Below are positions 13,848 to 27,107 of a stretch of DNA of 32,000 nucleotides, one piece after another. Under the pieces are notes generated by a model that did no database searches, was not told the origin of the DNA, and saw only the letters and a program-made list of their open reading frames with translations. A program made the translations under genes and the position numbers. The DNA is taken from contig NZ_RSDW01000001.1 of assembly GCF_003945235.1 (NCBI RefSeq), positions 1,950,001 to 1,982,000 on the forward strand, given 5' to 3'. The first letter of the stretch is position 1. Each line of letters starts with the position of its first letter. The stretch is from Edaphobacter aggregans (lineage in GTDB: Bacteria; Acidobacteriota; Terriglobia; Terriglobales; Acidobacteriaceae).

Positions 13848-15308
13848 TCAAGCGTTATAAGTCGAAGACGAGACCCGTCCCCCACGCCCAGTCCAGTTCG
13901 TGTGGAAGAACTCACCCCGAGGCTTGTCCACGCGCTCGTAAGTATGCGCGCCGAAGAAGTCCCGCTGCGCCTGTAGCAGATTCGCCGGCAACCGCTCCGT
14001 CCTGTATCCATCATAGAAAGCCAGCGCAGTAGAAAACGCAGGCATAGGCACGCCAATCTCAATTGCATGAATGACAGCCTTGCGCCACGACCACCCATAC
14101 TTATTCAACGCACTCGAGAAGAAGTCATCCAACAGCAAATTCTGCAGCTTCGGATTCTTATCGAACGCCGCCTTGATATTCCCCAGGAACACGCTGCGAA
14201 TAATGCAGCCGCCACGCCACATCAGCGCGATGCCGCCCATATTCAACTCCCAGTTCTGCTCCTTCTCCACGGCGCGCAGCAACATGTATCCCTGCGCGTA
14301 GCTCACCATCTTCGAGCAATACAACGCCCGCCGAACGTCCTCGATAAACTCCCTCTTCTCCGAAATCGTCAGCGCCTTCTTCGGCCCCTCTAGCACCTTC
14401 GAAGCAGCAACGCGCTCATCCTTCAACGCCGACAGGCACCGCGCAAACACACTCTCGCCAATCAGCGTCACAGGCTGTCCCAGATCAAGCGCCGAAATCG
14501 CGGTCCACTTGCCCGTTCCCTTCTGTCCAGCCGTATCCAGAATCTTGTCGATCATCGGCTGACCATCGTCGTCCTTCTTGGCAAAGATCTCCGCCGTAAT
14601 CTCGATCAGATAGCTATCCAGTTCGCCCTTATTCCACTCCGCAAACATCTCGGCGAACTCGTCGGCGCTCAGCCCCAACCCATCCTTCAGCAACTGATAG
14701 GCCTCACAGATCAGCTGAATATCGCCATACTCAATACCATTGTGAACCATCTTCACGTAGTGGCCCGCACCATCCTCACCCACCCAGTCGCAGCAAGGCG
14801 TGCCATCTTCAACCTTCGCCGCGATCGCTTGAAAGATCTCCTTCACATGCGGCCACGCAGCAGGATTCCCACCCGGCATAATCGAAGGACCAAACCGCGC
14901 GCCCTCTTCGCCACCTGAAACACCCGTGCCAATAAACAGAATTCCCTTCTCCGCCAACTCCTTCGTCCGACGATTCGTATCGGTAAACAGCGAGTTCCCA
15001 CCATCAATCAGGATGTCGCCCTTCTCGAGATACGGCAGCACATGCTCAATCGTCTGATCGACCACATCGCCCGCCTTCACCATCAGCATCACGCGCCGCG
15101 GAGACTTCAGCAATCCGCAAAGCTCCTCAGCCGAGTGCGCGCCAACCACCTGCGTCCCTTTAGCCTCATTGTTGATAAACTCATCGACCTTCGCAACCGT
15201 CCGGTTGAACACCGCCACCTTGTATCCATGGTCGTTCATGTTCAAGACCAGGTTCTGCCCCATCACGGCCAATCCAATCAATCCAATATCGCAAGTTGCT
15301 TCAGCCAT
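13848..15308 (-). CDS. gnd: NADP-dependent decarboxylating 6-phosphogluconate dehydrogenase, 486 aa
   Basis: The product is MAEATCDIGLIGLAVMGQNLVLNMNDHGYKVAVFNRT..., with GNSLFTDT, GTGVSGGEEGARFGPSIMPGG, KMVHNGIEYGDIQLI and RDFFGAHTYERVD. The start is set to ATG 15308 (GGAGA 7 nt upstream), which removes 12 spurious track codons. Confidence 0.95.
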   Translation of the reverse strand: MAEATCDIGLIGLAVMGQNLVLNMNDHGYKVAVFNRTVAKVDEFINNEAKGTQVVGAHSAEELCGLLKSPRRVMLMVKAGDVVDQTIEHVLPYLEKGDILIDGGNSLFTDTNRRTKELAEKGILFIGTGVSGGEEGARFGPSIMPGGNPAAWPHVKEIFQAIAAKVEDGTPCCDWVGEDGAGHYVKMVHNGIEYGDIQLICEAYQLLKDGLGLSADEFAEMFAEWNKGELDSYLIEITAEIFAKKDDDGQPMIDKILDTAGQKGTGKWTAISALDLGQPVTLIGESVFARCLSALKDERVAASKVLEGPKKALTISEKREFIEDVRRALYCSKMVSYAQGYMLLRAVEKEQNWELNMGGIALMWRGGCIIRSVFLGNIKAAFDKNPKLQNLLLDDFFSSALNKYGWSWRKAVIHAIEIGVPMPAFSTALAFYDGYRTERLPANLLQAQRDFFGAHTYERVDKPRGEFFHTNWTGRGGRVSSSTYNA

Positions 15309-15461
15309 CTCAAATCTCCAGACGCGTCCTTCAAGAGCACGCAAAAATATGCATCGCTCGCAGCCGATTCATCACAGAAAAAAAGTGGTCAAACCACGAG
15401 AGATTTTTCTATCACACCAGAGGAACGTTAAGATAGGTAGTTACCCCGCCAACATCCCGTG

Positions 15462-15522: not shown

Positions 15523-18500
15523 CTAGAAGGTAAGTCGTCCACCCAACTGGACCAACCGTGGGAAGCCCAGCGTACCGGTGATCTTTCCGGCAGTCGAGCT
15601 ATCCGCGGCTAGATTTGGACCATTGAACTGCGGCGTGTTGAAGGCATTCAAAGCCTCCGCGCGGAACTCAGCATTGACCCGCTCGGTGACATGGAAGCTC
15701 TTGTTGAGCGACAGGTCGAAGTTCGCATACCCCGGCCCATAGCAATTCAAAGTACGTGGTGAATTGCCGTAGCTTCCCGCCGGCGTCGTACTAAAGGCTG
15801 CCGGATTGAAGTAAGCATTCAAACGGTCTTGCGGGCGTCCCGAATAGCAGGGGTTAACTCCGGGCACCAGCGAAGGACGCGTACCCAGGTTGCCGAATGC
15901 AGAGTTGGAGTTAGTCGTTTGCGAGATCGGCAAAGGAGCGCCATCCTGAATGATCATGATGTTGTTGAATGTCCATCCTCCAACGGCAAGATCCATCCAA
16001 CGATTGGCTCCACTCAGGAACTGTTTACCGTGACCGAAGGGCAGTTCATACGTCAGCGCCAACGTTGTCCGCTTCGGAATATTGTTGATCGAACGCGCGT
16101 ATTCCGCGTGAATGTTGTTTACGTCCTGAGCGCCATTGTTATTTGAAATCAGCGGATTCAAGGTACTGCTCGCGCCCCACAGATTGTCCCAATTCGAAGC
16201 CCAGGTAAAGGCTCCGAGAACCGTAAGACCATTGGAGAAGAGTTTCTGGACCTTGACGTTCAGCGCGTTGAAGTTTGTGATGCCATCGCTCACCGAATCG
16301 GTGATCGTAGTGAATTGCGGGAAGGGACGCAGCGATTGATTGTACGGCTGATTCGCGCTGCTCCATGCACCCGTGCCGGCAAACTTGAACGGCACTTTGT
16401 TCGTGAGCGCTGCATTCCCTAGCGAGAAATAATTATCCGACAGTTGATTGATGTTCAAGCTGTTCGGCTGATTCCGTCCATGCCCGCCCACATAACCAAT
16501 CTTCAACGCAAAGCCATGAGGCAGCTCTTGTTGAATATCGGCCGAGTAGGACTGATAGAAAGGCGCCTTGCGCGCCTGATCGATCAGCGATAGCGAACTG
16601 CCAATGCTTGTGCTGAGCCCCAGCGTGTTGCCAGTAGGAGTCGTGCTCAAAGTTGGGAAAGGATTCGACAGGTTGATCGCCGGCACCCCGCTCTGCGACG
16701 GAATAACATTGGTCAATACATAGCCTGGCGCAAGTGATGCTGATCCACTGTAAACAAGCGGTTGGTAAAAGAGACCGTAGCCGCCGCGAACCACAGTCTG
16801 CGGCGTAATGGCATACGCGAATCCTGCACGTGGCGAAATCTTGTTTACAGTCTGTCCGGTCGCTGTCGGATAGCTGCCCTGGCCGGCAAACTCGATACCG
16901 CCTACAGCTTGGACAGTCGATCCAGCCACGGTGAAGGGCGTCGTACGGTCGAAGCCGACAGAGTAGCGATTGTGACGCTCATTCACACCGGGCTCGTGCT
17001 CATACCTGAGACCCAGATTCAGCGTCAGCTTCGGCGTCACACGCACATCATCCTGCCCATAGATCGCGTTGTATTGGGATGTAATCGCCAGCTGCGTGGG
17101 CACAACCAACGATCCTGATGTCGGGTACCCGAGCAACATATCGGCCGCCGTAGCCCCTGAGCTTCCCGACGTGCTCGAAACCCCCGAGTTCGTCAGCGTA
17201 CTGTCAAAGGCAAAGGTGCCGCTCGTGTTGCTCAAGCTGGTATACGTCAAGCTGATCGCACGAAAGACATATCCCGCCTTCAGACTATGTCTGCCCATGC
17301 TCTTTGCTATACCGGTAACAAAGTTCCGCGAAAAATAGACCGCGGGTCCGGAGTTGGATGTGCCCTGACTGGCCAGACCTGCATCGCCCGTGATCGCGGG
17401 AAAACCTGTCTTCGAAAGTGCTGCGAGATAGTTCGCCGGAAAACCAAGCGCTGCCTGGTTGAAACCTACGCTGATGTCCTTTGTGTCGTTCGGAAAACGA
17501 TTGAAACCAAAGCCGGCCGTCAAAATGGTTGTCGGATTCAGCGTAATCGTATTTTGTATACCGATAGCATCTACTTTCCGGTACAGCAGATACGACGAAG
17601 AGCTACCAGCAAAATTCTGCAAAGCGTTTCCGCCCGGTTCCTTCGAGCCATAGTGCATGTAGTAGAAATCTGCCAGCCAGCGTTCACCAAAAGAGTGAGT
17701 TACTTTTCCGACGAACTCGTCTGCGCGATCACCCAGCGTATCGCCGCCGTTGAAGTTGAAGCCGCCATAGGAGGTCACATTGGTATTTGGCTGTGGATAC
17801 ACCGCAAGAATCGCATATCCAACCGGGTTGATTCTGTTCGAAGGAATTTTGTTGAAGGGGAACGCCTGGCGTGTCGGGCTAAGCGGATCGTAAATGCACC
17901 GTCCGCTGATGCAGTTTCCGTTCGCGTCCGCTTGTCCAATCTCAGAGAAATCGCCCGCGTTCGCAATCGAAGTGCCGCGCTGCAGCAGCGTTGGCACAAC
18001 AAACGAATTCGCTGCCGTCAAAGGCGACCGCTGGCGATATCCCTCTCCCGTTATCCAGAAGAATGTTTTGTCCTTGCCGCCCAGAATCTTCGGCAGCGGT
18101 ATTGGGCCGCCGATCGATCCCGCGTAGGTATAGAACTCTGCCGCCCCGCGCGGTGTCGTCGGCTGAGTAACTCCGTTCGATGTATATGGCGTCCGATTGT
18201 TGAAGAATAGATTGGCACCCCAGTTTGTCTGCCGCGTCTGCCCCTGCAGCACCCCATGCAACGCGCTGGACCCCGAACGCAACGTCGTGTTGAACATGCC
18301 GCCGCTCGTGCGCCCAATCTCCGCGTCATAGGTATTTGCCTGCACCTTGACCTCTTGCACCGATTCGATCGACGGAATGATCACCGCTCGATTGCTGAAG
18401 TCCGTAATCGGAATGCCATCCACCGCATAGTTATTCGAGCTCAGTGGTGCGCCCGCAATCGAAATCGTTGATGATCCGCTCTGATCCTGGAAACGAACGA

Positions 18501-19023
18501 AACGCGGATCACCCACCGCTGTCACATTGTTATCCAGCTTCGAAAACAGAAATGGATTACGTCCTGGATTCGGCAGATTCTGCAGCTTCTGCGAGTCAAT
18601 CAATTGTCCATTGAAGGAAGTCCCGTTATTCACAATCGGCTCGGCCGCTGTTACTTCCACACTCTGGCTCATCGAACCGAGCTCTAGCCTGACATCCAAG
18701 GGGATCGTATTTCCCGCATCCACCCGGATGCCCTTGGACTCTGATTTCTTAAACCCATCGGTCGTCACCGTGACCGTGTAAACCCCCGGCGCAACTGCGC
18801 TGAACACATACTCGCCTGCGCCATTGCTCGTCGTAGTGCGGATGATCTTCGTATCTTCCGCTGTCAGCGAGATCGTCGCATTGGTTACGCTCGCACCCTG
18901 AACATCGGTGACCATGCCGCGCAAGGCTCCATAGTTCGATTGCGCTAATGCACTCGTAGCTGCCGTCACCACCATTGCAACCAGTACGAGAACGCCATAC
19001 AACTTCTTATTCAAGAAATGCAT
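15523..19023 (-). CDS. TonB-dependent outer-membrane receptor with an N-terminal carboxypeptidase-regulatory-like domain, 1166 aa
   Basis: The start is ATG 19023 (GGAGG 7 nt upstream), giving the signal peptide MHFLNKKLYGVLVLVAMVVTAATSALAQ. The CarboxypepD_reg-like block is GMVTDVQGASVTNATISLTAEDT..GEYVFSAVAPGVYTVTVTTDGFKK. Plug-like and long beta-barrel regions follow, and the C-terminus ..RLVQLGGRLTF ends in the usual terminal Phe. The 36 upstream track codons were dropped. Confidence 0.9.
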   Translation of the reverse strand: MHFLNKKLYGVLVLVAMVVTAATSALAQSNYGALRGMVTDVQGASVTNATISLTAEDTKIIRTTTSNGAGEYVFSAVAPGVYTVTVTTDGFKKSESKGIRVDAGNTIPLDVRLELGSMSQSVEVTAAEPIVNNGTSFNGQLIDSQKLQNLPNPGRNPFLFSKLDNNVTAVGDPRFVRFQDQSGSSTISIAGAPLSSNNYAVDGIPITDFSNRAVIIPSIESVQEVKVQANTYDAEIGRTSGGMFNTTLRSGSSALHGVLQGQTRQTNWGANLFFNNRTPYTSNGVTQPTTPRGAAEFYTYAGSIGGPIPLPKILGGKDKTFFWITGEGYRQRSPLTAANSFVVPTLLQRGTSIANAGDFSEIGQADANGNCISGRCIYDPLSPTRQAFPFNKIPSNRINPVGYAILAVYPQPNTNVTSYGGFNFNGGDTLGDRADEFVGKVTHSFGERWLADFYYMHYGSKEPGGNALQNFAGSSSSYLLYRKVDAIGIQNTITLNPTTILTAGFGFNRFPNDTKDISVGFNQAALGFPANYLAALSKTGFPAITGDAGLASQGTSNSGPAVYFSRNFVTGIAKSMGRHSLKAGYVFRAISLTYTSLSNTSGTFAFDSTLTNSGVSSTSGSSGATAADMLLGYPTSGSLVVPTQLAITSQYNAIYGQDDVRVTPKLTLNLGLRYEHEPGVNERHNRYSVGFDRTTPFTVAGSTVQAVGGIEFAGQGSYPTATGQTVNKISPRAGFAYAITPQTVVRGGYGLFYQPLVYSGSASLAPGYVLTNVIPSQSGVPAINLSNPFPTLSTTPTGNTLGLSTSIGSSLSLIDQARKAPFYQSYSADIQQELPHGFALKIGYVGGHGRNQPNSLNINQLSDNYFSLGNAALTNKVPFKFAGTGAWSSANQPYNQSLRPFPQFTTITDSVSDGITNFNALNVKVQKLFSNGLTVLGAFTWASNWDNLWGASSTLNPLISNNNGAQDVNNIHAEYARSINNIPKRTTLALTYELPFGHGKQFLSGANRWMDLAVGGWTFNNIMIIQDGAPLPISQTTNSNSAFGNLGTRPSLVPGVNPCYSGRPQDRLNAYFNPAAFSTTPAGSYGNSPRTLNCYGPGYANFDLSLNKSFHVTERVNAEFRAEALNAFNTPQFNGPNLAADSSTAGKITGTLGFPRLVQLGGRLTF

Positions 19024-19773
19024 AATGCAGCCTCCAACGGTATGTAGTAGGTGCTTCCTACTCAAGAGACACCTATAGGTAGCAGCCTGGGTCACAGGCT
19101 CGCGGGTGTAAGTAAAATTGCCTAAATACAAGACAGAATGCGACTAAGTCGTAGATACACTTCAGCTAGGTCGCTGAAAGTAACGTCCTTACCGATCGGC
19201 AGATACACCTCACCGTCGGCCTTTTCAGACTCATTCAATTTCTTTCAAACTAACAAAGACATTTGGTCTACAGCTGCTGAATCTCTGCGATCTGCTCTCC
19301 GGCAAAACCAGCCGAAGTCAACGGTCAGGGCGACAAGCAAATTGAACTTACGAGATACCGTGAATACAGATCCGGCGAGTGCCTTCTCTGTCCACCTGCT
19401 TCTGAAACCCGCCAACGGAGGGAGCTAAATACACTTTCGGTTAAGAGGCCCGATAATTCTCTTCAGCCTCACTGACGTGAGAAATAGCTTTTTTGATGAT
19501 GGATCCGAGCCTAGCCGAGTGTAAAGATCGTGTCAATAGAAATCTGCAAGATTATTTCGCTCAATCGCTTAATAACCGCGCCAATACAAGACTTTCTCTT
19601 AGTCATGATTCAATTTTCTAATCAGTAAATCTCTAAATTTACCCGCCCCTCAACTAGAAATTGAGTTACAGTATCTTCAAGTTCCCCCACAAATATCTTG
19701 TTAACAAAAACTTTAGGCCCACAGCTTTAGTCATAACTCAATCTATCCGCCTCTTACTCGAAGGAGCTCCTCC

Positions 19774-20994
19774 ATGCATTTGCCGAAGACATCATCGTCC
19801 GTCTCTCGCCGTTCCTTCATGCGACTGGCAGGCGTCGCCGCATCCATGCCGATCCTCACGGAAGCCCACTTCGCCTGGGCCGCGCAGCAGGCCCCCGGAG
19901 CAGCAGCCGCAGCGCCTGCTCGCCGCGTGCGACAAGCCATGCCCGCAGACGCCGTACTCATCAACGCCAACGAGAATCCCCTCGGCCCATGTAAAGCGGC
20001 CTGCGAAGCCATCGCATCCATCGCACCCAAAGGCGGCCGCTACGACATTGACGGCGAGACCGACAAACTAATCAAGACCTTCGCCTCACAAAACGGCCTC
20101 AAAGAAAACTACATCGCCGTATACGCCGGTTCTTCCGAACCACTTCACTACTCAGTCCTCGCCTTCACCTCTCCCACCAAAGGCTTCGTCACTGCCGATC
20201 CCTCTTACGAAGCAGGCATGCGCGCCGCACAGGTCGCCAAAGCAAAAATCTCCAAGGTCCCTCTCAAGCCCGACTACTCGCACGACGTCAAGGCCATGAT
20301 CGCCGCTGATCCCAACGCCGGCGTCTTCTACATCTGCAACCCCAACAATCCCACCGGCACCATCACCTCCAAAGCCGACATCCTCTGGGCGCTCGAGAAC
20401 AAGCCCAAGGGCTCCATCCTCCTCGTCGACGAGGCCTACATCCATCTCTCCGACGCCGAAAACGTAGTCGACCAGGTAGCAGCCGACAAGGACATCATCA
20501 TCCTTCGCACCTTCTCGAAGATCTACGGCATGGCCGGCATTCGTTGCGGCTTCGCGCTCGGCCGCCCCGATCTTCTCGCCAAGCTCCAGCCCTTCGGCCA
20601 GAACGCGATGCCGATCACCGGCTCTGCCGCCGCCAACGTCAGCCTCCTCGATACCGATCTCGTGCCCACGCGCAAAAAAATCATCGCCGACACGCGCAAC
20701 GACACCTTCGCCTTCCTCAAGGCAAACAACTACAAGTTCATCCCATCGCAATCCAACTGCTTCATGATCGACACCGGTCGCAACGGCCAGCAGGTCATCG
20801 CAGCCATGCGCGCCAAGAACGTCTACATCGGTCGCACCTGGCCCATCTGGCCTAACACCGTCCGCGTCAGCGTCGGCACACCCGCCGAGATGGCGAAGTT
20901 CAAAGTAGCCTTCAAAGAGGTCATGGACTCTGCTCCCACGGCAGCCTCGTTGCACGACCCCTTCGCCGACATCACCTTCCCTCAACTCTCCTAG
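19774..20994 (+). CDS. Class I/II PLP-dependent aminotransferase of the histidinol-phosphate aminotransferase (HisC-like) family with an N-terminal twin-arginine (Tat) signal, 406 aa
   Basis: AAGGAG lies 7 nt upstream. The signal is MHLPKTSSSVSRRSFMRLAGVAASMPILTEAHFAWA|AQ (SRRxFxRL, hydrophobic core, AxA). The mature part has INANENPLGP, YAGSSEPL, NPNNPTG, LLVDEAYIHL and RTFSKIYGMAGIRCGF (the Lys of SK is the PLP lysine). Confidence 0.85.
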   Translation: MHLPKTSSSVSRRSFMRLAGVAASMPILTEAHFAWAAQQAPGAAAAAPARRVRQAMPADAVLINANENPLGPCKAACEAIASIAPKGGRYDIDGETDKLIKTFASQNGLKENYIAVYAGSSEPLHYSVLAFTSPTKGFVTADPSYEAGMRAAQVAKAKISKVPLKPDYSHDVKAMIAADPNAGVFYICNPNNPTGTITSKADILWALENKPKGSILLVDEAYIHLSDAENVVDQVAADKDIIILRTFSKIYGMAGIRCGFALGRPDLLAKLQPFGQNAMPITGSAAANVSLLDTDLVPTRKKIIADTRNDTFAFLKANNYKFIPSQSNCFMIDTGRNGQQVIAAMRAKNVYIGRTWPIWPNTVRVSVGTPAEMAKFKVAFKEVMDSAPTAASLHDPFADITFPQLS

Positions 20995-21104: not shown

Positions 21105-22361
21105 TTGCCCATCTCTCATCGCACCTTCGCACTTGCCGCCATTGCCTCACTCGCTCTTCCCCTCGCGTCCCAGCAGCCTCACAAAGTCACGCAGGAAGAG
21201 GTTGACCGCATCACCCGCGACGCCATCCTCATCGACACCCACAACGACGTCACCTCCCGCACCGTCGCCGGCTACGACATCGCCACTCCCAACAAATCCG
21301 GCGAGACCGATCTCCCGCGCATGAAAGGCTACCTCGGCGCCGAGTTCTTCGCCGTCTACGTCGGAGCTGAATACGTCAAGGACAATCACTCCGCCAACCG
21401 CACTCTCCAGATGATCGACACCGTCCGCACCGATATCATCGCCGCTCACCCCAACGACTTCGTCTTCGCCACCACCGCCGACGACATCGTCCGCGCCCAC
21501 AACGAACACAAGATCGCCGCCCTCATGGGCATCGAAGGCGGCCACGCCATCGAAGATTCCCTCCGCCTCCTCCGCGACTACTACGCCCTCGGCGTCCGCT
21601 ACATGACTCTCACCCACTTCAACACCAACAACTGGGCCGACTCGCAAGGCGACATCGACAACCCGAAGATCGCCCACCACAACGGCCTCACGCCATTCGG
21701 CAAAGACGTCGTCCGCGAGATGAACCGACTCGGCATGATGGTCGACATCTCCCACACCGCCGACCCAACCTTCTACGCCGCGCTCGAGACCAGCACCGCA
21801 CCCATCATTGCCTCGCACTCCGGCTGCCGCGCCGTCTCCAGCTACACCCGCAACATGACCGACGATATGATCAAAGCCCTCGCCGCAAAAGGCGGAGTAG
21901 TCCAGATCAACTTCGGTTGCGACTTCCTCTCCCAGCGCTACTTCGACGACGCCAAGCCCCTTGAAGCCTCCATGCGCGAACAATACATGGCCGCAATGAA
22001 GATCGAAGACCCCGCTGCAAAGAATGCCGCCATTGAAAAGCTCCGTGCGGACTTCACCGCCAAGCTCCCGCCCGCGACTCTCGCCGACGTAGTAGCCCAG
22101 ATCGACCACGCTGTAAAAGTAGGTGGCATCGACCACGTAGGTATCGGCACCGACTTTGACGGAGTAGGCTGCGTCCCACCCGACCTCAACTCCTACAACA
22201 AATTCCCCGCCCTAATCCGCGCACTACTCGAAAAAGGCTACACCGCCGAAGACATCAAAAAAATCTACGGAGGCAATCTTCTCCGCGTCATGCGAGCCGT
22301 AGAACAACGCGCCCGCGAACTCCAATCAACTCCAGCACTCCACACCGAAATAACAAAGTAA
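21105..22361 (+). CDS. Membrane-dipeptidase family (peptidase M19) zinc dipeptidase with a Sec-type signal peptide, 418 aa
   Basis: The signal is MPISHRTFALAAIASLALPLASQQ. Its start codon is TTG at 21105 and there is no in-frame ATG in the signal region, so the exact start is uncertain. M19 blocks are LIDTHNDVTSR, DLPRMKGYLGAEFFAVYV, GIEGGHAIEDSLRLLRDYYALGVRYMTLTH, MMVDISHTAD, IASHSG, VVQINF and HVGIGTDFDG. Confidence 0.85.
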   Translation: MPISHRTFALAAIASLALPLASQQPHKVTQEEVDRITRDAILIDTHNDVTSRTVAGYDIATPNKSGETDLPRMKGYLGAEFFAVYVGAEYVKDNHSANRTLQMIDTVRTDIIAAHPNDFVFATTADDIVRAHNEHKIAALMGIEGGHAIEDSLRLLRDYYALGVRYMTLTHFNTNNWADSQGDIDNPKIAHHNGLTPFGKDVVREMNRLGMMVDISHTADPTFYAALETSTAPIIASHSGCRAVSSYTRNMTDDMIKALAAKGGVVQINFGCDFLSQRYFDDAKPLEASMREQYMAAMKIEDPAAKNAAIEKLRADFTAKLPPATLADVVAQIDHAVKVGGIDHVGIGTDFDGVGCVPPDLNSYNKFPALIRALLEKGYTAEDIKKIYGGNLLRVMRAVEQRARELQSTPALHTEITK

Positions 22362-22373
22362 GAACGGCAAAAA

Positions 22374-22401
22374 CTAAGGGGACCGATTAAGGTCCCCTTA
22401 G
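22374..22401. terminator. Hairpin terminator between the convergent dipeptidase and RidA genes
   Basis: The perfect 11-bp stem is CTAAGGGGACC-GATTAA-GGTCCCCTTAG. AAAAA on its left gives a T-tract for the minus-strand (RidA) transcript. The plus-side tail is weak. Confidence 0.65.
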
Positions 22402-22422
22402 TCAAATCTGAACTACCCCAAC

Positions 22423-22908
22423 TTACTTACTCTTCACCGCAATCACTTCAACTTCAAGCAGCGCCCATGGAGCAGCAAGCGCAGCAACCTGAAACGCCGA
22501 GCGCGCAGGCTTATTCGGCTGATCCTTCGTTCCGAAGAACTTCACATACTCCGACTGCATCCCCGCAAAGTCCAGCTTGCCTGTCTTCGGATCAGGCCCC
22601 AGGAACACGGTCATCTTCACCACATTGTTCATATCCAGACCCTGCTCCTTCAGCGCAGCCTGAATCTTCGCGAACACACTCGCAGCCTGAGCCTTCGTGT
22701 CACCATAATCCGCCTGTGTTCCCTTCGCTGGGTCAGCCGGAGTAACTGGCGAAGCCAATTGTCCGCTCAGGTAAAACGTATCGCCCGCCCAAACACCCTT
22801 TGCAATCGGGCTCTTGTCATCCTGAATATGCTTCACCACAACCTGAGCCTGAACCGCACATGCAGAGGCAACCATCACCGCCGCCATCAAGACATTCTTT
22901 AGCTTCAT
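22423..22908 (-). CDS. RidA/YjgF/TdcF-family reactive-intermediate (imine) deaminase with a Sec signal peptide, 161 aa
   Basis: I prefer ATG 22908 (GGAG 6 nt upstream) over 22926. The signal is MKLKNVLMAAVMVASACAVQA|Q. The RidA-type core has DTFYLSGQLA, KAQAASVFAKIQAALKEQGLDMNNVVKMTVFL, PARSAFQVAAL and LLEVEVIAV. Confidence 0.85.
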   Translation of the reverse strand: MKLKNVLMAAVMVASACAVQAQVVVKHIQDDKSPIAKGVWAGDTFYLSGQLASPVTPADPAKGTQADYGDTKAQAASVFAKIQAALKEQGLDMNNVVKMTVFLGPDPKTGKLDFAGMQSEYVKFFGTKDQPNKPARSAFQVAALAAPWALLEVEVIAVKSK

Positions 22909-22943
22909 CACACGCTCCAGTTTCATAGTTAGATAAAAAGGAA

Positions 22944-24527
22944 CTAGCCCCGCACCGTGCCACTCACTCCGCCAGCCAGCTTAGCAGCCTTCACCTTATC
23001 GCAGATCATCTGCACTGCACGCTTTCCACTCAGTGCAGCGCCCTCCTGCCAGCCGACAACATGGCTCGCCGTATCGCCCGCAAAGTAGATCGGCCCATCG
23101 GCCTGAATGATCGTGTTGTATCCCTCTGGTCCGCCGCCATAGGCGCGAATCCACGATCCCTCATTCCACTTCACCCGCCGCCATCCGCAGAACACAGGAT
23201 TCTTCAGCTCCTTCCCATGCCCGGGGTGCAGCTTCTCAATCGACCCACGCGACGCAGCAAACTTCTCTTCCAGCGACATCTTCCAGAACGGCGTGTTCTG
23301 TTCCTCCGTATACCCGGCCACAACAATCCCAGTCGGATGCATCAACCGGCTCGACGGATACCACACCGGACTCGGCCCCTGCTGCACAAACGACAGGCCG
23401 CCATAGATGTTGTAATCCTGCTCCCAGAATCGCCGGCTCTCCCACGCAACCTTGTAGCTACCCGCAGGAGTACTCTCATTCACCACCTTGGCGAACTCGG
23501 GCGAAAGATCGTTTGGCACCTTCTTCAGCATCTCGAACGGCATCGCAATCACGCAATAGTTCGCCTCAAGCTGTTTCTCGACGCCCTTCTGCGTGTAGCT
23601 CACCTTCACGCCATTGGCGGTCTTGCGAATCGCTGTCACCGGTGAGCTGAACTGCACCACCGGCCCCAGAGCCTTGGCAAACGCATAAGGAATACGATCC
23701 ATGCCCCCAACCGGCTGCATCATCGTCGCCTGCCAGTCCCAGGTTTCTTCGTACAACATGCCGCCCCAGAAAGCCTCATCGAGCAGCGTGTGCATATCCA
23801 TCGGCACTTCGACCTCAGACACCTGAGTCCCCGCGCCCGGCGGAGTCTTGAACCCAGCCCGATCCGACCCAACATACTTGCCCGTCTTATCCAGCGGCCC
23901 ATAAATCCGCAGGAACGTCTTCATCCGCTCTCTGTCTTCCGCCGAAATATCCTGATCCAGCGCACCCTGCGCGATGCACTTCGACAGCAACTCCGACACA
24001 TGCCCCCGCGTGTCGTTGATCGCCTTGCGCTGCGGCACAGCCGCTCCGCCATTGGCATTATCATTCTGCAACAGCGTCGATCGCGACGTATTGATCTCCA
24101 CTTCCAGCGGAACACCAAGCTCCCGACAATAATTAAGCATCGTCCAGTGAGTGCTCGGCAAACGCGCCGGCCCGAGGTTCTGGTAGTTGCCTTCTTCCCA
24201 ATTAATCGTCTGGGTCGTTCCATCGGTGAACTCAACCTTCGTCCCATTCCGACCCGACCAGTTACGCCCACCCGGGCGCTCTCTCGCCTCGAGCAGCGTT
24301 ACATCGTACCCCAGCTTCTTCAGCTCATAGGCCGTAGTGAGTCCGCCGATTCCACCGCCCAGCACCGCGACCTTCACGCCCTTGCCCGAGCCTGCCGCCG
24401 CCTCAATCGCCTTCACGGCCTGGCCCTGCATTGGCATCAGCCCCAGCGACTGCATGGTTGCAAACGCAGCGCTGTATCCACCAGCCTGCCCGACACGCAT
24501 TAGAAAGTCACGTCTGGAAATCCCCAT
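22944..24527 (-). CDS. Flavin-dependent amine / L-amino-acid oxidase family protein with a Tat signal, 527 aa
   Basis: The track start (24560) is TTG. ATG 24527 (AAGGAG upstream) gives MGISRRDFLMRVGQAGGYSAAFATMQSL..., with a twin-Arg motif. The FAD fold is KVAVLGGGIGGLTTAYELKKLGYDVTLLEARERPGGR, and the C-terminal FAD block is IYFAGDTASHVVGWQEGAALSG. Confidence 0.85.
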   Translation of the reverse strand: MGISRRDFLMRVGQAGGYSAAFATMQSLGLMPMQGQAVKAIEAAAGSGKGVKVAVLGGGIGGLTTAYELKKLGYDVTLLEARERPGGRNWSGRNGTKVEFTDGTTQTINWEEGNYQNLGPARLPSTHWTMLNYCRELGVPLEVEINTSRSTLLQNDNANGGAAVPQRKAINDTRGHVSELLSKCIAQGALDQDISAEDRERMKTFLRIYGPLDKTGKYVGSDRAGFKTPPGAGTQVSEVEVPMDMHTLLDEAFWGGMLYEETWDWQATMMQPVGGMDRIPYAFAKALGPVVQFSSPVTAIRKTANGVKVSYTQKGVEKQLEANYCVIAMPFEMLKKVPNDLSPEFAKVVNESTPAGSYKVAWESRRFWEQDYNIYGGLSFVQQGPSPVWYPSSRLMHPTGIVVAGYTEEQNTPFWKMSLEEKFAASRGSIEKLHPGHGKELKNPVFCGWRRVKWNEGSWIRAYGGGPEGYNTIIQADGPIYFAGDTASHVVGWQEGAALSGKRAVQMICDKVKAAKLAGGVSGTVRG

Positions 24528-24572
24528 ACGAACAAACACTCCTTCTGAAGATGAATTCAACGCTCATTGCCA

Positions 24573-24635
24573 CTACGGAATACACCGAAGACCCGAACTA
24601 AGAGAAGTACTGCCTACGAATACACGAAGACCGCG
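24573..24635. repeat. Direct repeat pair upstream of the oxidase gene
   Basis: CTACGGAATACACCGAAGACC (24573-24593) and CTACGAATACACGAAGACC (24614-24632) start 41 bp apart. They lie 46-108 nt upstream of the oxidase ATG. Confidence 0.6.
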
Positions 24636-24921
24636 TATCCACTGGAGTGCTGAAAGGAGTTACAAGTTTTCTAAGAAGATGTAGCTACTCTATCGCAAAA
24701 TTCAGTTGTGCGCTCCGGAAATTCCGGCAAGTTCACTTAGAAGCGGGCGATAGCTGTAAGACGATTAGAATGAAAAAAAGTTCACGCCAGCACCAGCGCT
24801 AACCATCTATATCTGCAAGATAGCAATGGGAAATAATTGTTCTAATAACGCTGATTGAAAAACTCTATCGCAGAAAAATTCCACTCAGTTCGCCACTCGT
24901 CACAAAACCTGCACTGAATCG

Positions 24922-26121
24922 CTAAGCCCCGATCGTCACCAACTCCGGTTCGCTCACCGTCCGCTTCAACTGCCCACAAGCAGCATAGATATCCCGCCCC
25001 CGAGGCCGCCGGATATAAGTCGGCATCCCACCGTCAATCAACATCTTCTGAAACACCGCCACACTCTCTGGATCAGGCTGCGTATAAGCAATCCCCGGCC
25101 CAGGATTCCACACAATCAGATTCACCTTCGCGTGCATGCCCTTCAACAGAGCCAGCACCTCGCGAGCATGCTCCGGCTGATCGTTCACCCCACCCAGCAG
25201 CACATACTCAAACGTCACCCAATCCCGCTTGCCCATCGGAATCGTCCTCACCGCATCCAGCAACTGAGCAATATTCCACTTTCGCGTAATCGGCATGATC
25301 TGCTCGCGCACAACATCGTTCGAAGCATTCAAACTCAACGCCAGCTTTGGCCTCAACGTCTCCTGCGCGAACCGCCGGATCGCCGGCTCAATCCCGCTCG
25401 TCGAAACCGTCATCCGCGACTCCGGAATCCCGATCCCCTCCACCAGCAACCGCACCGAAGCAATAAACGCCTCGTAATTCAAAAACGGCTCGCCCATCCC
25501 CATAAACACCAGGTTGATGCGATCCTTCCCAATCTTCACCCCATGCCGATTCAGCACCGCCGCCACCTGCCCGGCGATCTCGCCCGCCGTAAGGTTCCGC
25601 TTAATCCCCAGCTTCGCCGTCAGGCAAAACTGACAGTTCACCGCACACCCAACTTGGCTCGAAATACAAATCGTCGCCCGCCGATACCCCGCCGCAGCCA
25701 GCGCCCCCCAATTCCGCTTATCAACCTTATCGACCGGGCGAGACCCCTCATTCCCCTCACGCCCCTCCAACACTTCTTCCTCAAGAGCGGCCTCAGTCCC
25801 ATCCCCCCGCTCGCCGCCATCGCCATCCGGCATCCATACGGTCTCCACGGTCTCGCCATCGGCCATCCGCATCAGATAGCGCTCGGTGCCATCCACCGAC
25901 ACCGCCGCCTGCACAATCTCCGGCATCCCCACCACAGCACCCTCGTCCGTCAACCGAGCCCGCAACTCCGCCGGCAGCACCGTCATCTCCTCCACCGAAG
26001 ACACCCGCTGCTTATAAAGAGCCTCCCAAACCTGCCGCGCCCGATAAAGCTTCTGCCCCAGCGCACCCATGCGCTCCATCAACTCCGGCAGACTCATCCC
26101 AAACAACGCAGCACGTTCCAT
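24922..26121 (-). CDS. rlmN: Radical-SAM 23S rRNA/tRNA adenine-C2 methyltransferase RlmN, 400 aa
   Basis: The start is ATG 26121 (MERAALFGMSLPELMERMG..), 2 nt after the cupin stop. Key blocks are SSQVGCAVNCQFCLT (CxxxCxxC), FMGMGEPFLNY, VSTSGI, NLIVWNP and ACGQL. Confidence 0.95.
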   Translation of the reverse strand: MERAALFGMSLPELMERMGALGQKLYRARQVWEALYKQRVSSVEEMTVLPAELRARLTDEGAVVGMPEIVQAAVSVDGTERYLMRMADGETVETVWMPDGDGGERGDGTEAALEEEVLEGREGNEGSRPVDKVDKRNWGALAAAGYRRATICISSQVGCAVNCQFCLTAKLGIKRNLTAGEIAGQVAAVLNRHGVKIGKDRINLVFMGMGEPFLNYEAFIASVRLLVEGIGIPESRMTVSTSGIEPAIRRFAQETLRPKLALSLNASNDVVREQIMPITRKWNIAQLLDAVRTIPMGKRDWVTFEYVLLGGVNDQPEHAREVLALLKGMHAKVNLIVWNPGPGIAYTQPDPESVAVFQKMLIDGGMPTYIRRPRGRDIYAACGQLKRTVSEPELVTIGA

Positions 26122-26671: not shown

Positions 26672-26756
26672 GCGAAAGTGGCGAAATTGGCAGACGCACC
26701 AGACTTAGGATCTGGCGGAGCAATCCGTGGGGGTTCAAGTCCCCCCTTTCGCACCA
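26672..26756 (+). tRNA. tRNA-Leu (anticodon TAG), class II with a long variable arm, CCA encoded
   Basis: The sequence is GCGAAAGTGGCGAAATTGGCAGACGCACCAGACTTAGGATCTGGCGGAGCAATCCGTGGGGGTTCAAGTCCCCCCTTTCGCACCA. The acceptor stem is GCGAAAG/CTTTCGC. The anticodon stem is CCAGA/TCTGG with loop CTTAGGA. The T arm is GGGGG-TTCAAGT-CCCCC. A TACAAT box lies at 26635-26640. Confidence 0.95.
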
Positions 26757-26786
26757 AATTCTAAAAGTACCCAGGAAGCCGTTTCC

Positions 26787-27107
26787 ATGAGCCAGCCCAG
26801 CCAGCCGTCAGGTCAAGATCAACCCAAGCTCAACCTCACCACCACCGACGACTACCGCGACGGCTACGCCAACAGCGTTCAGGTCCGCATGAGCGTCTGG
26901 GACTTCTTCCTCGTCTTCGGCACCATGCAGCAAGATACCGCCGACGAACTCACCGTCAAAAACTTCCAGGGCATCTACCTCAGCCCCCAGCAGGCCAAGG
27001 CCCTCTGGAACATCCTCGGCCACAACCTCGCCCAGTACGAGCAGACCTTCGGCCCCATCGCCCTCGAGCAGCAACAGCTCCCCCAACCGAACGGCCCCGT
27101 CCACTAA
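26787..27107 (+). CDS. DUF3467-family small protein, 106 aa
   Basis: ATG 26787 lies downstream of the tRNA; the track ORF start at 26727 falls inside the tRNA. YANSVQVRMSVWDFFLVFG...IYLSPQQAKALWNILGHNLAQYEQTFGPI matches the DUF3467 pattern as I recall it. Confidence 0.75.
   Translation: MSQPSQPSGQDQPKLNLTTTDDYRDGYANSVQVRMSVWDFFLVFGTMQQDTADELTVKNFQGIYLSPQQAKALWNILGHNLAQYEQTFGPIALEQQQLPQPNGPVH

Follow-up and report, generated by a model that had tools for sequence, protein, structure and literature searches.

Can amino acids be deaminated outside the cytoplasm of Edaphobacter aggregans by an oxidase that has its own imine-hydrolyzing partner? This question is raised by two adjacent genes in a stretch of 32,000 nucleotides of its genome (assembly GCF_003945235.1, contig NZ_RSDW01000001.1, positions 1,950,001 to 1,982,000), which was analyzed as a whole and is called the window in the following. 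One of the two genes (22944-24527, minus strand; all positions refer to the window) encodes a flavin-dependent amino-acid oxidase and the other (22423-22908, minus strand) a protein of the Rid (YjgF/YER057c/UK114) superfamily. In a preliminary description of this locus, both products were taken for exported proteins forming a producer and quencher pair for imines outside the cytoplasm, and recurrence of the adjacency in other genomes was set beforehand as a test that could refute this idea.

In this study, we analyzed the gene structure, the family and subfamily membership, the catalytic residues, the export signals and the recurrence of the pair. Together, these lend in silico support to a functional reading which we consider probable as a whole: the exported oxidase makes imino acids in the periplasm, and the exported Rid protein, a member of the Rid3 subfamily, hydrolyzes them there.

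Operon structure, start codons and terminator

In the open reading frame (ORF) list of the window, the oxidase ORF and the Rid ORF are arranged head-to-tail on the minus strand. The oxidase gene (22944-24527) extends from ATG 24527 to a TAG stop codon at 22946-22944 and encodes 527 amino acids (N-terminus MGISRRDFLMRVGQAGG), while the Rid gene (22423-22908) extends from ATG 22908 to a TAA stop codon at 22425-22423 and encodes 161 amino acids (N-terminus MKLKNVLMAAVMVASACAVQA). The intercistronic gap is 35 nt when counted from ATG 22908 and 17 nt when counted from an alternative in-frame ATG at 22926, so that the gene coordinates and the gap of 17-35 nt given in the preliminary description were correct. 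For comparison, 80 loci from distinct Acidobacteriaceae genomes were used, in which the oxidase is 60-98% identical to that of the window. ATG 22908 is the better start of the Rid gene, because a Shine-Dalgarno sequence read from the DNA (GGAG, 22915-22918, minus strand) lies within the 35-nt gap 6 nt upstream of it and because the equivalent start (MK...) is used in 64 of 65 orthologues. Likewise, the oxidase start ATG 24527 is backed by the Shine-Dalgarno sequence GAAGGAG (24539-24545, minus strand, also read from the sequence), which is located 11 nt upstream, and by the N-termini of all 79 orthologues (79/79) that could be compared.

Downstream of the Rid3 gene, between convergent genes, an intrinsic terminator was found at 22369-22403 (minus strand). 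Its stem (CUAAGGGGACC/GGUCCCCUUAG) comprises 11 perfect base pairs and is extendable to 13 pairs, and it is followed by a run of five uridines after closing a 6-nt loop (UUAAUC). A simple terminator scan missed this hairpin at 22369-22403. By direct folding, it was confirmed: the 71-nt region reaches -27.7 kcal/mol with z = -4.27, and none of 200 shuffled sequences folded as well. The 11-bp-stem terminator proposed earlier is therefore real and even somewhat longer. Both genes are thus on the same strand, the 35-nt gap holds a separate Shine-Dalgarno sequence for the second gene, and a hairpin is present after Rid3 and none between the genes. Oxidase and Rid3 gene are probably a co-transcribed pair.

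Identity of the two enzymes

The oxidase matches the family Amino_oxidase (PF01593) over residues 60-508 with 130.4 bits (cut-off 19.8; E = 1.5e-37). A motif for binding of flavin adenine dinucleotide (FAD), VAVLGGGIGG, starts at residue 53, and its dinucleotide-binding part VLGGGIGG covers residues 55-62. The PF01593 match and this N-terminal GxGxxG motif place the protein in the flavin amine oxidase family. Its closest solved relative is the L-amino-acid oxidase (LAAO) of Rhodococcus opacus (2jae; E = 3.6e-87, query residues 52-512), and the next-best ones are snake-venom and ancestral LAAOs, while monoamine and putrescine oxidases gave far weaker matches. The substrate pocket of the R. opacus enzyme includes R84, which binds the substrate carboxylate, and D227, Y371, W426, A466 and W467 (PMC10900486). 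In the alignment, R84, D227, Y371, W426 and W467 are identical in the Edaphobacter protein, A466 is replaced by Gly and Y226 by Trp. Conservation of these pocket residues argues for an alpha-amino-acid oxidase and against an amine oxidase. With similarity over the full length and five conserved pocket residues, the protein is predicted to be an LAAO of the R. opacus type, and the earlier claim of a flavin amino-acid oxidase is supported.

The second protein matches Ribonuc_L-PSP (PF01042) over residues 38-158 with 73.3 bits (E = 2.2e-20), which is above the gathering score of 27.3 and makes it a member of the Rid superfamily. Scores for the models of archetypal RidA proteins remained below their cut-offs (TIGR00004, 66.6 versus 106.25 bits; NF008490, 43.5 versus 222). 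The closest solved relatives are the Rid3 proteins PSPTO_3006 (9bka; 1.8e-29) and PFL_1385 (9bkc; 2.3e-25), whereas similarity to the YabJ, RidA and TdcF types is weak (1e-12 to 1e-7). Both PSPTO_3006 and PFL_1385 were assigned to Rid3 by Hodge-Hanson and Downs (PMC5619798, Table 3). In the alignment, Arg136, which corresponds to R105 of RidA, and Glu152/154, which corresponds to RidA E120, are invariant, and Tyr17 of RidA aligns with Ile36. Retention of the catalytic Arg and Glu together with a replacement of Tyr17 by Ile is the signature of Rid3 (Niehaus 2015, PMC4433059). Because its best solved relatives are Rid3 proteins and because it has this combination of residues, the protein is, judged from its sequence, a Rid3 protein and not RidA in the strict sense. 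The name RidA imine deaminase used in the preliminary description thus holds with respect to the Rid family and the catalytic Arg and Glu, but not with respect to the subfamily, in view of the TIGR00004 score below the cut-off and the exchange of Tyr17 for Ile. Imine-deaminase activity of the subfamily is known from PFL_1385 and PSPTO_3006, which reduce the semicarbazone formed from LAAO-generated imines of Leu, Gln, Phe, Met and His and also use iminoarginine (PMC5619798).

Export signals

The N-terminus of the oxidase (24393-24527, minus strand; approximately residues 1-45, MGISRRDFLMRVGQAGGYSAAFATMQSLGL) is a predicted signal region for twin-arginine translocation (Tat). It contains the Tat motif SRRDFL at residues 4-9 (RR codons 24515-24510), which is followed by a mildly hydrophobic, Gly/Ala-rich stretch VGQAGGYSAAFATMQSLGL, as expected for a Tat signal. 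In all 79 non-truncated oxidase orthologues, the motif [ST]RRx[FLI][LIVM] is present, and this twin-arginine (RR) motif is also found in the oxidases of Pseudomonas, Nitrospirillum, Caulobacteraceae and two further distant loci (L085 and L086, see below). The solved chain of R. opacus LAAO starts aligning at about query residue 40; the cleavage position of the oxidase signal was only inferred. As a side observation, the hydrophobic part VGQAGGYSAAFATMQSLGL is conserved in sequence in alphaproteobacterial homologues (L084 2287-, L085 2419-) that are ~30-45% identical overall. Such conservation is unusual for a cleaved signal and may point to an added role, chaperone binding or anchoring.

The Rid3 protein starts with a predicted signal peptide of the Sec type (22846-22908, minus strand; MKLKNVLMAAVMVASACAVQA), which has a basic n-region (MKLKN), a 14-residue hydrophobic core VLMAAVMVASACAV and an AxA-like site at QA-Q; cleavage is predicted between VQA and QV, so that the following residues are QVVVKH. 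This architecture was found in 64 of the 65 Rid orthologues with divergent sequences, and the one exception is probably due to a wrong choice of the start codon. A reading as lipoprotein based on the sequence ASAC was rejected, as the Cys is not conserved in orthologues, whereas the QAQ/AQA site is. Since the signal varies in sequence with constant properties and the Cys is not conserved, it fits a cleaved Sec signal and not a lipobox. For both proteins, the export signals claimed in the preliminary description, a Tat signal for the oxidase and a signal peptide for the Rid protein, thereby gained comparative support, and periplasmic localization of oxidase and Rid3 is predicted.

Export appears to be widespread among Rid3-like proteins. 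When 1.8 billion representative proteins were searched, using the Rid3 protein of the window as query, 94 of the best 150 were full-length (140-240 amino acids), and 78 of these 94 have a signal-peptide-like N-terminus according to a crude hydrophobicity rule. The same was found with a crude heuristic for 64 of 78 metagenomic Rid3 genes. As a heuristic estimate, ~80% of Rid3-like proteins look exported. Also, Rid3-like domains are fused to c-type cytochromes (five representatives: P0181, P0188, P0195, P0198 and P0238), to a PBP/beta-lactamase domain (P0250) and to a SecDF P1 head (P0235), and because these fusion partners are periplasmic modules, they argue for a location of the Rid3 clade outside the cytoplasm. 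The clade also comprises Rid3-like proteins of ~460 amino acids that contain three Rid domains (P0130, P0131 and P0137), and in several of these the N-terminus resembles a signal peptide or a lipobox.

Two observations concern the solved Rid3 proteins. PFL_1385 comprises 165 amino acids and has a clear signal peptide (MSLKNTVVGLGLLFAASSSWA, P0272). Its export is not mentioned in the report on its activity, in which heterologous expression and complementation of Salmonella were used (PMC5619798), and could affect the reading of the complementation. At the locus of the PSPTO_3006 type (L086, 2394-4435), the Rid3 protein lacks a signal peptide, and its start codon shares bases (ATGA) with the stop codon of the gene for an oxidase bearing a Tat motif. 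This Rid3 protein could be cytoplasmic, or it could be co-exported in a complex with the oxidase by Tat hitchhiking. The terms signal peptide and periplasm are absent from the text of PMC4433059 and PMC5619798, and no paper dealing with Rid3 proteins that are exported or periplasmic turned up in full-text literature searches.

Recurrence of the gene pair

In 65 of the 80 Acidobacteriaceae loci, the oxidase gene is followed by a Rid3 gene on the same strand, mostly with a gap of 17-67 nt (median ~33 nt). The flanking genes vary and include TetR/MFS genes, UMP kinase/acyltransferase, 6-phosphogluconate dehydrogenase, TonB receptors and others. Since the pair is kept while the surrounding genes change, oxidase and Rid3 gene represent a conserved two-gene module. 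Two ORFs with an apparent fusion of oxidase and Rid, L020 (4992-7100) and P0124, were discarded, as they contain an out-of-frame stop (L020) or frameshift-like junk (P0124) and are most likely assembly or indel artefacts.

Outside the phylum, an Amino_oxidase gene (~520-536 amino acids) adjoins the Rid3 gene in all five distant loci that were looked up. These are from Pseudomonas protegens, Nitrospirillum, a metagenome-assembled genome (MAG) of the Caulobacteraceae, an unassigned metagenomic contig (L085) and the locus of the PSPTO_3006 type (L086). In P. protegens, the genes of an M19 dipeptidase, a Tat-motif oxidase, the signal-peptide Rid3 protein PFL_1385 and a TonB receptor follow each other in this order. 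The row in Nitrospirillum is Rid, oxidase, cytochrome c and TonB receptor, with the oxidase 32% and the Rid protein 44% identical to those of the window. In addition, metagenomes were scanned with an alignment of diverse Rid3 proteins. Among 29 well-flanked Rid3 loci, having at least 2.3 kb on both sides, the oxidase is present in 23. The adjacency therefore passed the test that had been set for it, recurring in 65/80, 5/5 and 23/29 loci.

Upstream region

Approximately 170 nt before the oxidase ATG, there is a conserved motif TTTTGCGATAGAGT (24687-24700, minus strand), which is a candidate promoter or operator element. With a second copy at 24862-24875 it forms a direct repeat, and these are the only two matches in the 32-kb window. 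In 13 other loci, a conserved island TTTTGCGATAGAGTA is located at -76 to -174 from the oxidase ATG in leaders that are otherwise divergent (loci with this island include L008, L014, L016, L019, L022, L024, L025, L028, L030, L033 and L052). The exact 9-mer GCGATAGAG has 27 matches in 882 kb of related loci, 16 of which lie within ~350 nt upstream of the oxidase. The 395-nt upstream region gave no Rfam match even at E <= 1, and RNAalifold applied to 11 leaders yielded -4.4 kcal/mol with essentially no covariation. A riboswitch or other structured leader was thus rejected, as only the short DNA motif is conserved. Because there is neither a conserved RNA fold nor an Rfam match, the motif is probably a promoter or operator. 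A sigma-70 promoter scan of 22200-25000 found none, and no sigma-54 -24/-12 element with correct spacing was found by eye.

Genomic neighborhood

The neighbors of the pair in the window are genes for RlmN, a cupin, a tRNA, an M19 dipeptidase, an aminotransferase and a TonB receptor. The last three, together with the pair, result in a row of five envelope proteins. The exported M19 membrane dipeptidase (21105-22361, plus strand; PF01244, 1.7e-103) has a signal-like N-terminus MPISHRTFALAAIASLALPLASQ and is convergent with the operon. Of the 80 Acidobacteriaceae loci, 17 have it no further than 5 kb from the pair, and in P. protegens it immediately precedes the oxidase gene and is read in the same direction. 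Next to it, a pyridoxal 5'-phosphate (PLP)-dependent aminotransferase with a Tat motif (SRRSFMRLAG) is encoded at 19774-20994 (plus strand). It is of the PRK09105 type (NF006580, 552 bits versus a cut-off of 444) and PtaA-like, reaching 416 bits with the PtaA model NF051461, which is below its cut-off of 500. In 13 of the 80 loci, this gene is found no more than 5 kb away from the oxidase. The third gene (15523-19131, minus strand) encodes a TonB-dependent-receptor-like outer-membrane protein (OMP) with CarboxypepD_reg and OMP beta-barrel domains (PF25183, 5.8e-188; PF13620). This receptor type was found in 11 other Acidobacteriaceae loci, in most of them directly downstream of Rid3, and the pair also has TonB receptors beside it in Pseudomonas, Nitrospirillum and L086.

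Beyond this three-gene block, a 6-phosphogluconate dehydrogenase gene is located at 13848-15344 (minus strand). Since 6-phosphogluconate dehydrogenase directly follows Rid3 in many related genomes, the three genes seem to have been inserted here or to be an addition specific to the lineage. The partially associated neighbors favor a role of the pair in nutrient acquisition. On the other side of the pair, a tRNA gene (26672-26753, plus strand; 58.8 bits) overlaps the mechanically called GTG start at 26727 of a DUF3467 ORF (26727-27107), and because of this overlap the real start of the ORF is probably further downstream.

Proposed function and alternative explanations

According to the proposed mechanism, the oxidase would fold and bind FAD in the cytoplasm and would be exported in the folded state via Tat; this step is suggested by the conserved twin-arginine motif and by the rule that cofactor-containing periplasmic enzymes use Tat. 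The Rid3 protein would be exported unfolded via Sec, cleaved at about VQA-QV and assembled in the periplasm. Amino acids would reach the periplasm, some of them probably released from dipeptides by the M19 dipeptidase after uptake through TonB-dependent receptors. The oxidase would convert them to 2-imino acids, and the reduced flavin (FADH2) would most likely be reoxidized by O2 with formation of H2O2. Rid3 would then convert the released imine to a 2-oxo acid and ammonium, thereby pulling the reaction forward and keeping reactive imines off envelope proteins. Finally, ammonium and possibly also the keto acid would be taken up. Localization, substrates, electron acceptor and physiological role in E. 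aggregans are what we infer here; the imine-deaminase step is proposed by analogy to the Rid3 homologues described in the literature, and nitrogen scavenging by analogy to the algal system discussed below. If the mechanism is true, the Acidobacteriaceae, a family abundant in acidic soils, in peat and in lichens, would not import amino acids and dipeptides but would obtain ammonium from them in the periplasm. This would bear on the mineralization of organic nitrogen in such soils and on the keto acids and H2O2 released to neighbors.

Several points weigh against this mechanism or limit it. Signal peptides were judged by motif and hydrophobicity heuristics, not by SignalP. Fifteen of the 80 oxidase homologues, which have 60-82% identity and each carry the RR motif, are without an adjacent Rid gene, so that the oxidase does not strictly need a dedicated Rid protein, and conversely 6 of the 29 well-flanked Rid3-like genes have no oxidase nearby. 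Imines also hydrolyze spontaneously, which may lessen the benefit from Rid3. A cytochrome c gene is present in 21 of 44 non-acidobacterial (metagenomic) oxidase loci, often between oxidase and Rid, and therefore acceptors other than O2 may be used at some loci. Genes for the dipeptidase, the aminotransferase and the receptor occur in only ~15-20% of the acidobacterial loci and are convergent here; because of this, a peptide-nitrogen pathway is suggestive, not established.

The 15 loci with an oxidase gene and no adjacent Rid gene are L009, L031, L034, L037, L038, L041, L043, L044, L049, L051, L061, L072, L074, L079 and L080. Several of these oxidases are second copies beside a paired copy in the genome (for example in Granulicella sp. 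L60, G. rosea and sp. dw_53), and the genes downstream of them differ (a GAF protein, a protein of unknown function or a TonB receptor).

A broader generalization appears doubtful to us at present. In it, Rid3 would be an extracytoplasmic subfamily that as a rule partners a Tat-exported L-amino-acid oxidase or dehydrogenase, possibly in a complex of the kind known from M-alpha and M-beta of Chlamydomonas, with signal-less forms such as PSPTO_3006 riding on Tat, and together with the exported dipeptidase, the Tat-exported aminotransferase and TonB receptors the pair would constitute an undescribed periplasmic route of peptide-nitrogen mineralization in Acidobacteriaceae.

Five other explanations were weighed against the periplasmic oxidase-Rid3 pair. 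According to the first, the flavoenzyme is in vivo a dehydrogenase whose electrons do not go to O2 but to a c-type cytochrome of the periplasm and on to the respiratory chain, while Rid3 still hydrolyzes the imine. The cytochrome c genes in the metagenomic loci mentioned above, the Nitrospirillum row, the existence of cytochrome c-Rid fusions and the lao-cccA-ridA operon of Gluconacetobacter diazotrophicus (PMC5053998) are consistent with this. However, no cytochrome c gene adjoins the pair in the window (window ORFs and domain scan) and none is among the recurrent gene families of the 80 acidobacterial loci, and R. opacus LAAO, the closest enzyme that has been characterized, is a genuine oxidase producing H2O2 (PMC10900486). 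For E. aggregans, we regard electron transfer to a cytochrome as unlikely.

For the LAAOs that bacteria secrete, the use of H2O2 as a weapon is often proposed as a general role. In this case, killing of competitors would be the main purpose of the locus, and Rid3 would merely clear a by-product. A bactericidal action of H2O2 has been discussed as a possible role of LAAO (PMC7412212), and the closest solved relative of the oxidase forms H2O2. The Tat motif, the periplasmic partner, the TonB receptors and the dipeptidase, however, point to import and processing of substrates and not to secretion of a toxin-producing enzyme; moreover, production of H2O2 in the own periplasm is costly and adjacent secretion-system genes are missing, which makes a weapon quite improbable.

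There is a similarly slim chance that the pair makes particular 2-oxo acids as signals, for example indole-3-pyruvate as precursor of auxin for plant, lichen or algal partners. The lao cluster is needed for production of indole-3-acetic acid in G. diazotrophicus (PMC5053998) and LAO1 for that in Chlamydomonas (PMC10805672), and several related loci are from lichen-associated MAGs, but in both model systems auxin comes from a broad-specificity oxidase acting on added tryptophan and may be a side product, and no gene in the window, for example an ipdC or aldehyde dehydrogenase gene, indicates an auxin pathway.

Slimmer still is the chance that Rid3 mainly shields a periplasmic PLP enzyme, namely the neighboring Tat aminotransferase, from damage by imines or enamines, which would mirror cytoplasmic RidA. 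The protection of PLP enzymes is the classical role of RidA (PMC4433059), and the aminotransferase gene is only ~1.4 kb away and, as stated above, near the oxidase in 13 of 80 loci. Yet most loci keep the pair without an aminotransferase, including those of Pseudomonas, Nitrospirillum, Caulobacteraceae, L085 and L086, and the constant partner of Rid3 is the oxidase.

Finally, it is highly unlikely that the N-terminal segments are no export signals, or uncleaved membrane anchors, so that the reactions would occur in the cytoplasm or on the face of the membrane. In favor of this, the sequence of the oxidase N-terminus is unusually well conserved even between phyla, as would hardly be expected of a signal peptide that is cleaved off, Proteus L-amino-acid deaminases are known to have uncleaved Tat anchors (PMC5651824) and the PSPTO_3006-type Rid3 has no signal peptide. 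However, the Rid N-terminus has all features of a cleaved Sec signal and varies in sequence with its properties kept, the cytochrome c fusions of the Rid3 clade require a periplasmic location, and the alignment of the R. opacus LAAO chain begins at about residue 40 of the oxidase, past the region predicted as its signal.

A periplasmic LAAO with an exported Rid3 partner is thus the explanation we retain, with conserved export signals, catalytic residues and recurrence as its in silico support.

Comparison with known systems

The Pseudomonas systems DadA-DadY, DauA with a Rid2 protein and DbuA-DbuB act on D-amino acids in the cytoplasm or at the inner membrane, and we know of no reports on export signals for these pairs. 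They resemble the locus in that a flavoenzyme releasing imino acids is encoded beside a hydrolyzing Rid protein, and Rid proteins speed the DauA reaction in vitro; they differ in that their Rid proteins belong to the Rid2 subfamily (PMC5619798; PMC9714295, PMC12724383). R. opacus LAAO (2JAE) is the closest solved structure and aligns over almost the whole mature oxidase, but it is actinobacterial and differs at the two positions occupied by Gly (A466) and Trp (Y226) in Edaphobacter.

Compared by description, the lao-cccA-ridA cluster of G. diazotrophicus (GDI2456-2454) is a close parallel, in which a Tat-signal LAAO is clustered and co-regulated with a gene of the RidA family (PMC5053998). For this system, a periplasmic cooperation was proposed, co-occurrence of lao and ridA in 19 other genomes was reported and the parallel to Chlamydomonas was noted (Rodrigues 2016, PMC5053998). 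It differs from the locus of the window by the cytochrome c gene between oxidase and Rid, which is absent here, so that the window locus is not of this cluster type; also, the phenotype studied was auxin synthesis from tryptophan. In Chlamydomonas reinhardtii, likewise compared by description, LAO1 (M-alpha) is an extracytoplasmic LAAO with a RidA-type partner encoded adjacent to it, LAO2/RidA (M-beta) (PMC10805672, PMC7412212, PMC5053998). LAO1/LAO2 deaminates external amino acids and small peptides, supplying ammonium under nitrogen starvation (PMC10805672, PMC7412212). In contrast to the locus studied here, this system is eukaryotic and targeted by the secretory pathway, and LAO1 and LAO2 were reported as subunits of one complex. 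Papers on nicotine and on chitin oxidation that pair RidA with the periplasm turned out to be irrelevant, as they deal with Rid proteins that reside in the cytoplasm or belong to the Rid6 or RidA type.

Clustering of Rid and amine oxidase genes was already reported by Niehaus 2015 (PMC4433059), and the concept of an oxidase-Rid pairing is known from Gluconacetobacter and Chlamydomonas. The novelty of an exported oxidase-Rid pair, as implied by the preliminary description, was therefore overstated in view of these precedents (PMC4433059, PMC5053998, PMC10805672, PMC7412212). The searchable literature held no description of the acidobacterial oxidase-Rid3 operon and no mention of an association of dipeptidase, receptor or aminotransferase with the pair. 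The new points are modest: the spread of the pair in Acidobacteriaceae, and the predicted export of most Rid3-like proteins. For the Rid3 field, a subfamily of which the in vivo substrate was called unknown may thereby obtain a testable context, since ~80% of its members seem to have signal peptides and most are encoded beside a Tat-motif oxidase.

A close solved counterpart of the Rid3 protein that shares the gene arrangement is PFL_1385 (PDB 9BKC) of P. protegens Pf-5. Here, too, a signal-peptide Rid3 protein is encoded directly downstream of a Tat-motif Amino_oxidase, with an M19 dipeptidase and a TonB receptor in the same row, and imine-deaminase activity of PFL_1385 was measured on LAAO-generated imines (PMC5619798). 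A characterization of the oxidase beside PFL_1385 was not found in the literature, and the study of PFL_1385 refers neither to its signal peptide nor to the operon. Identities to the proteins of the window are 42% for the oxidase, 38% for the Rid protein and 34% for the dipeptidase. In P. protegens, all four genes are co-oriented and the gap between oxidase and Rid3 is 88 nt, whereas in E. aggregans the dipeptidase gene is convergent, the receptor gene is further away and the gap is 35 nt.

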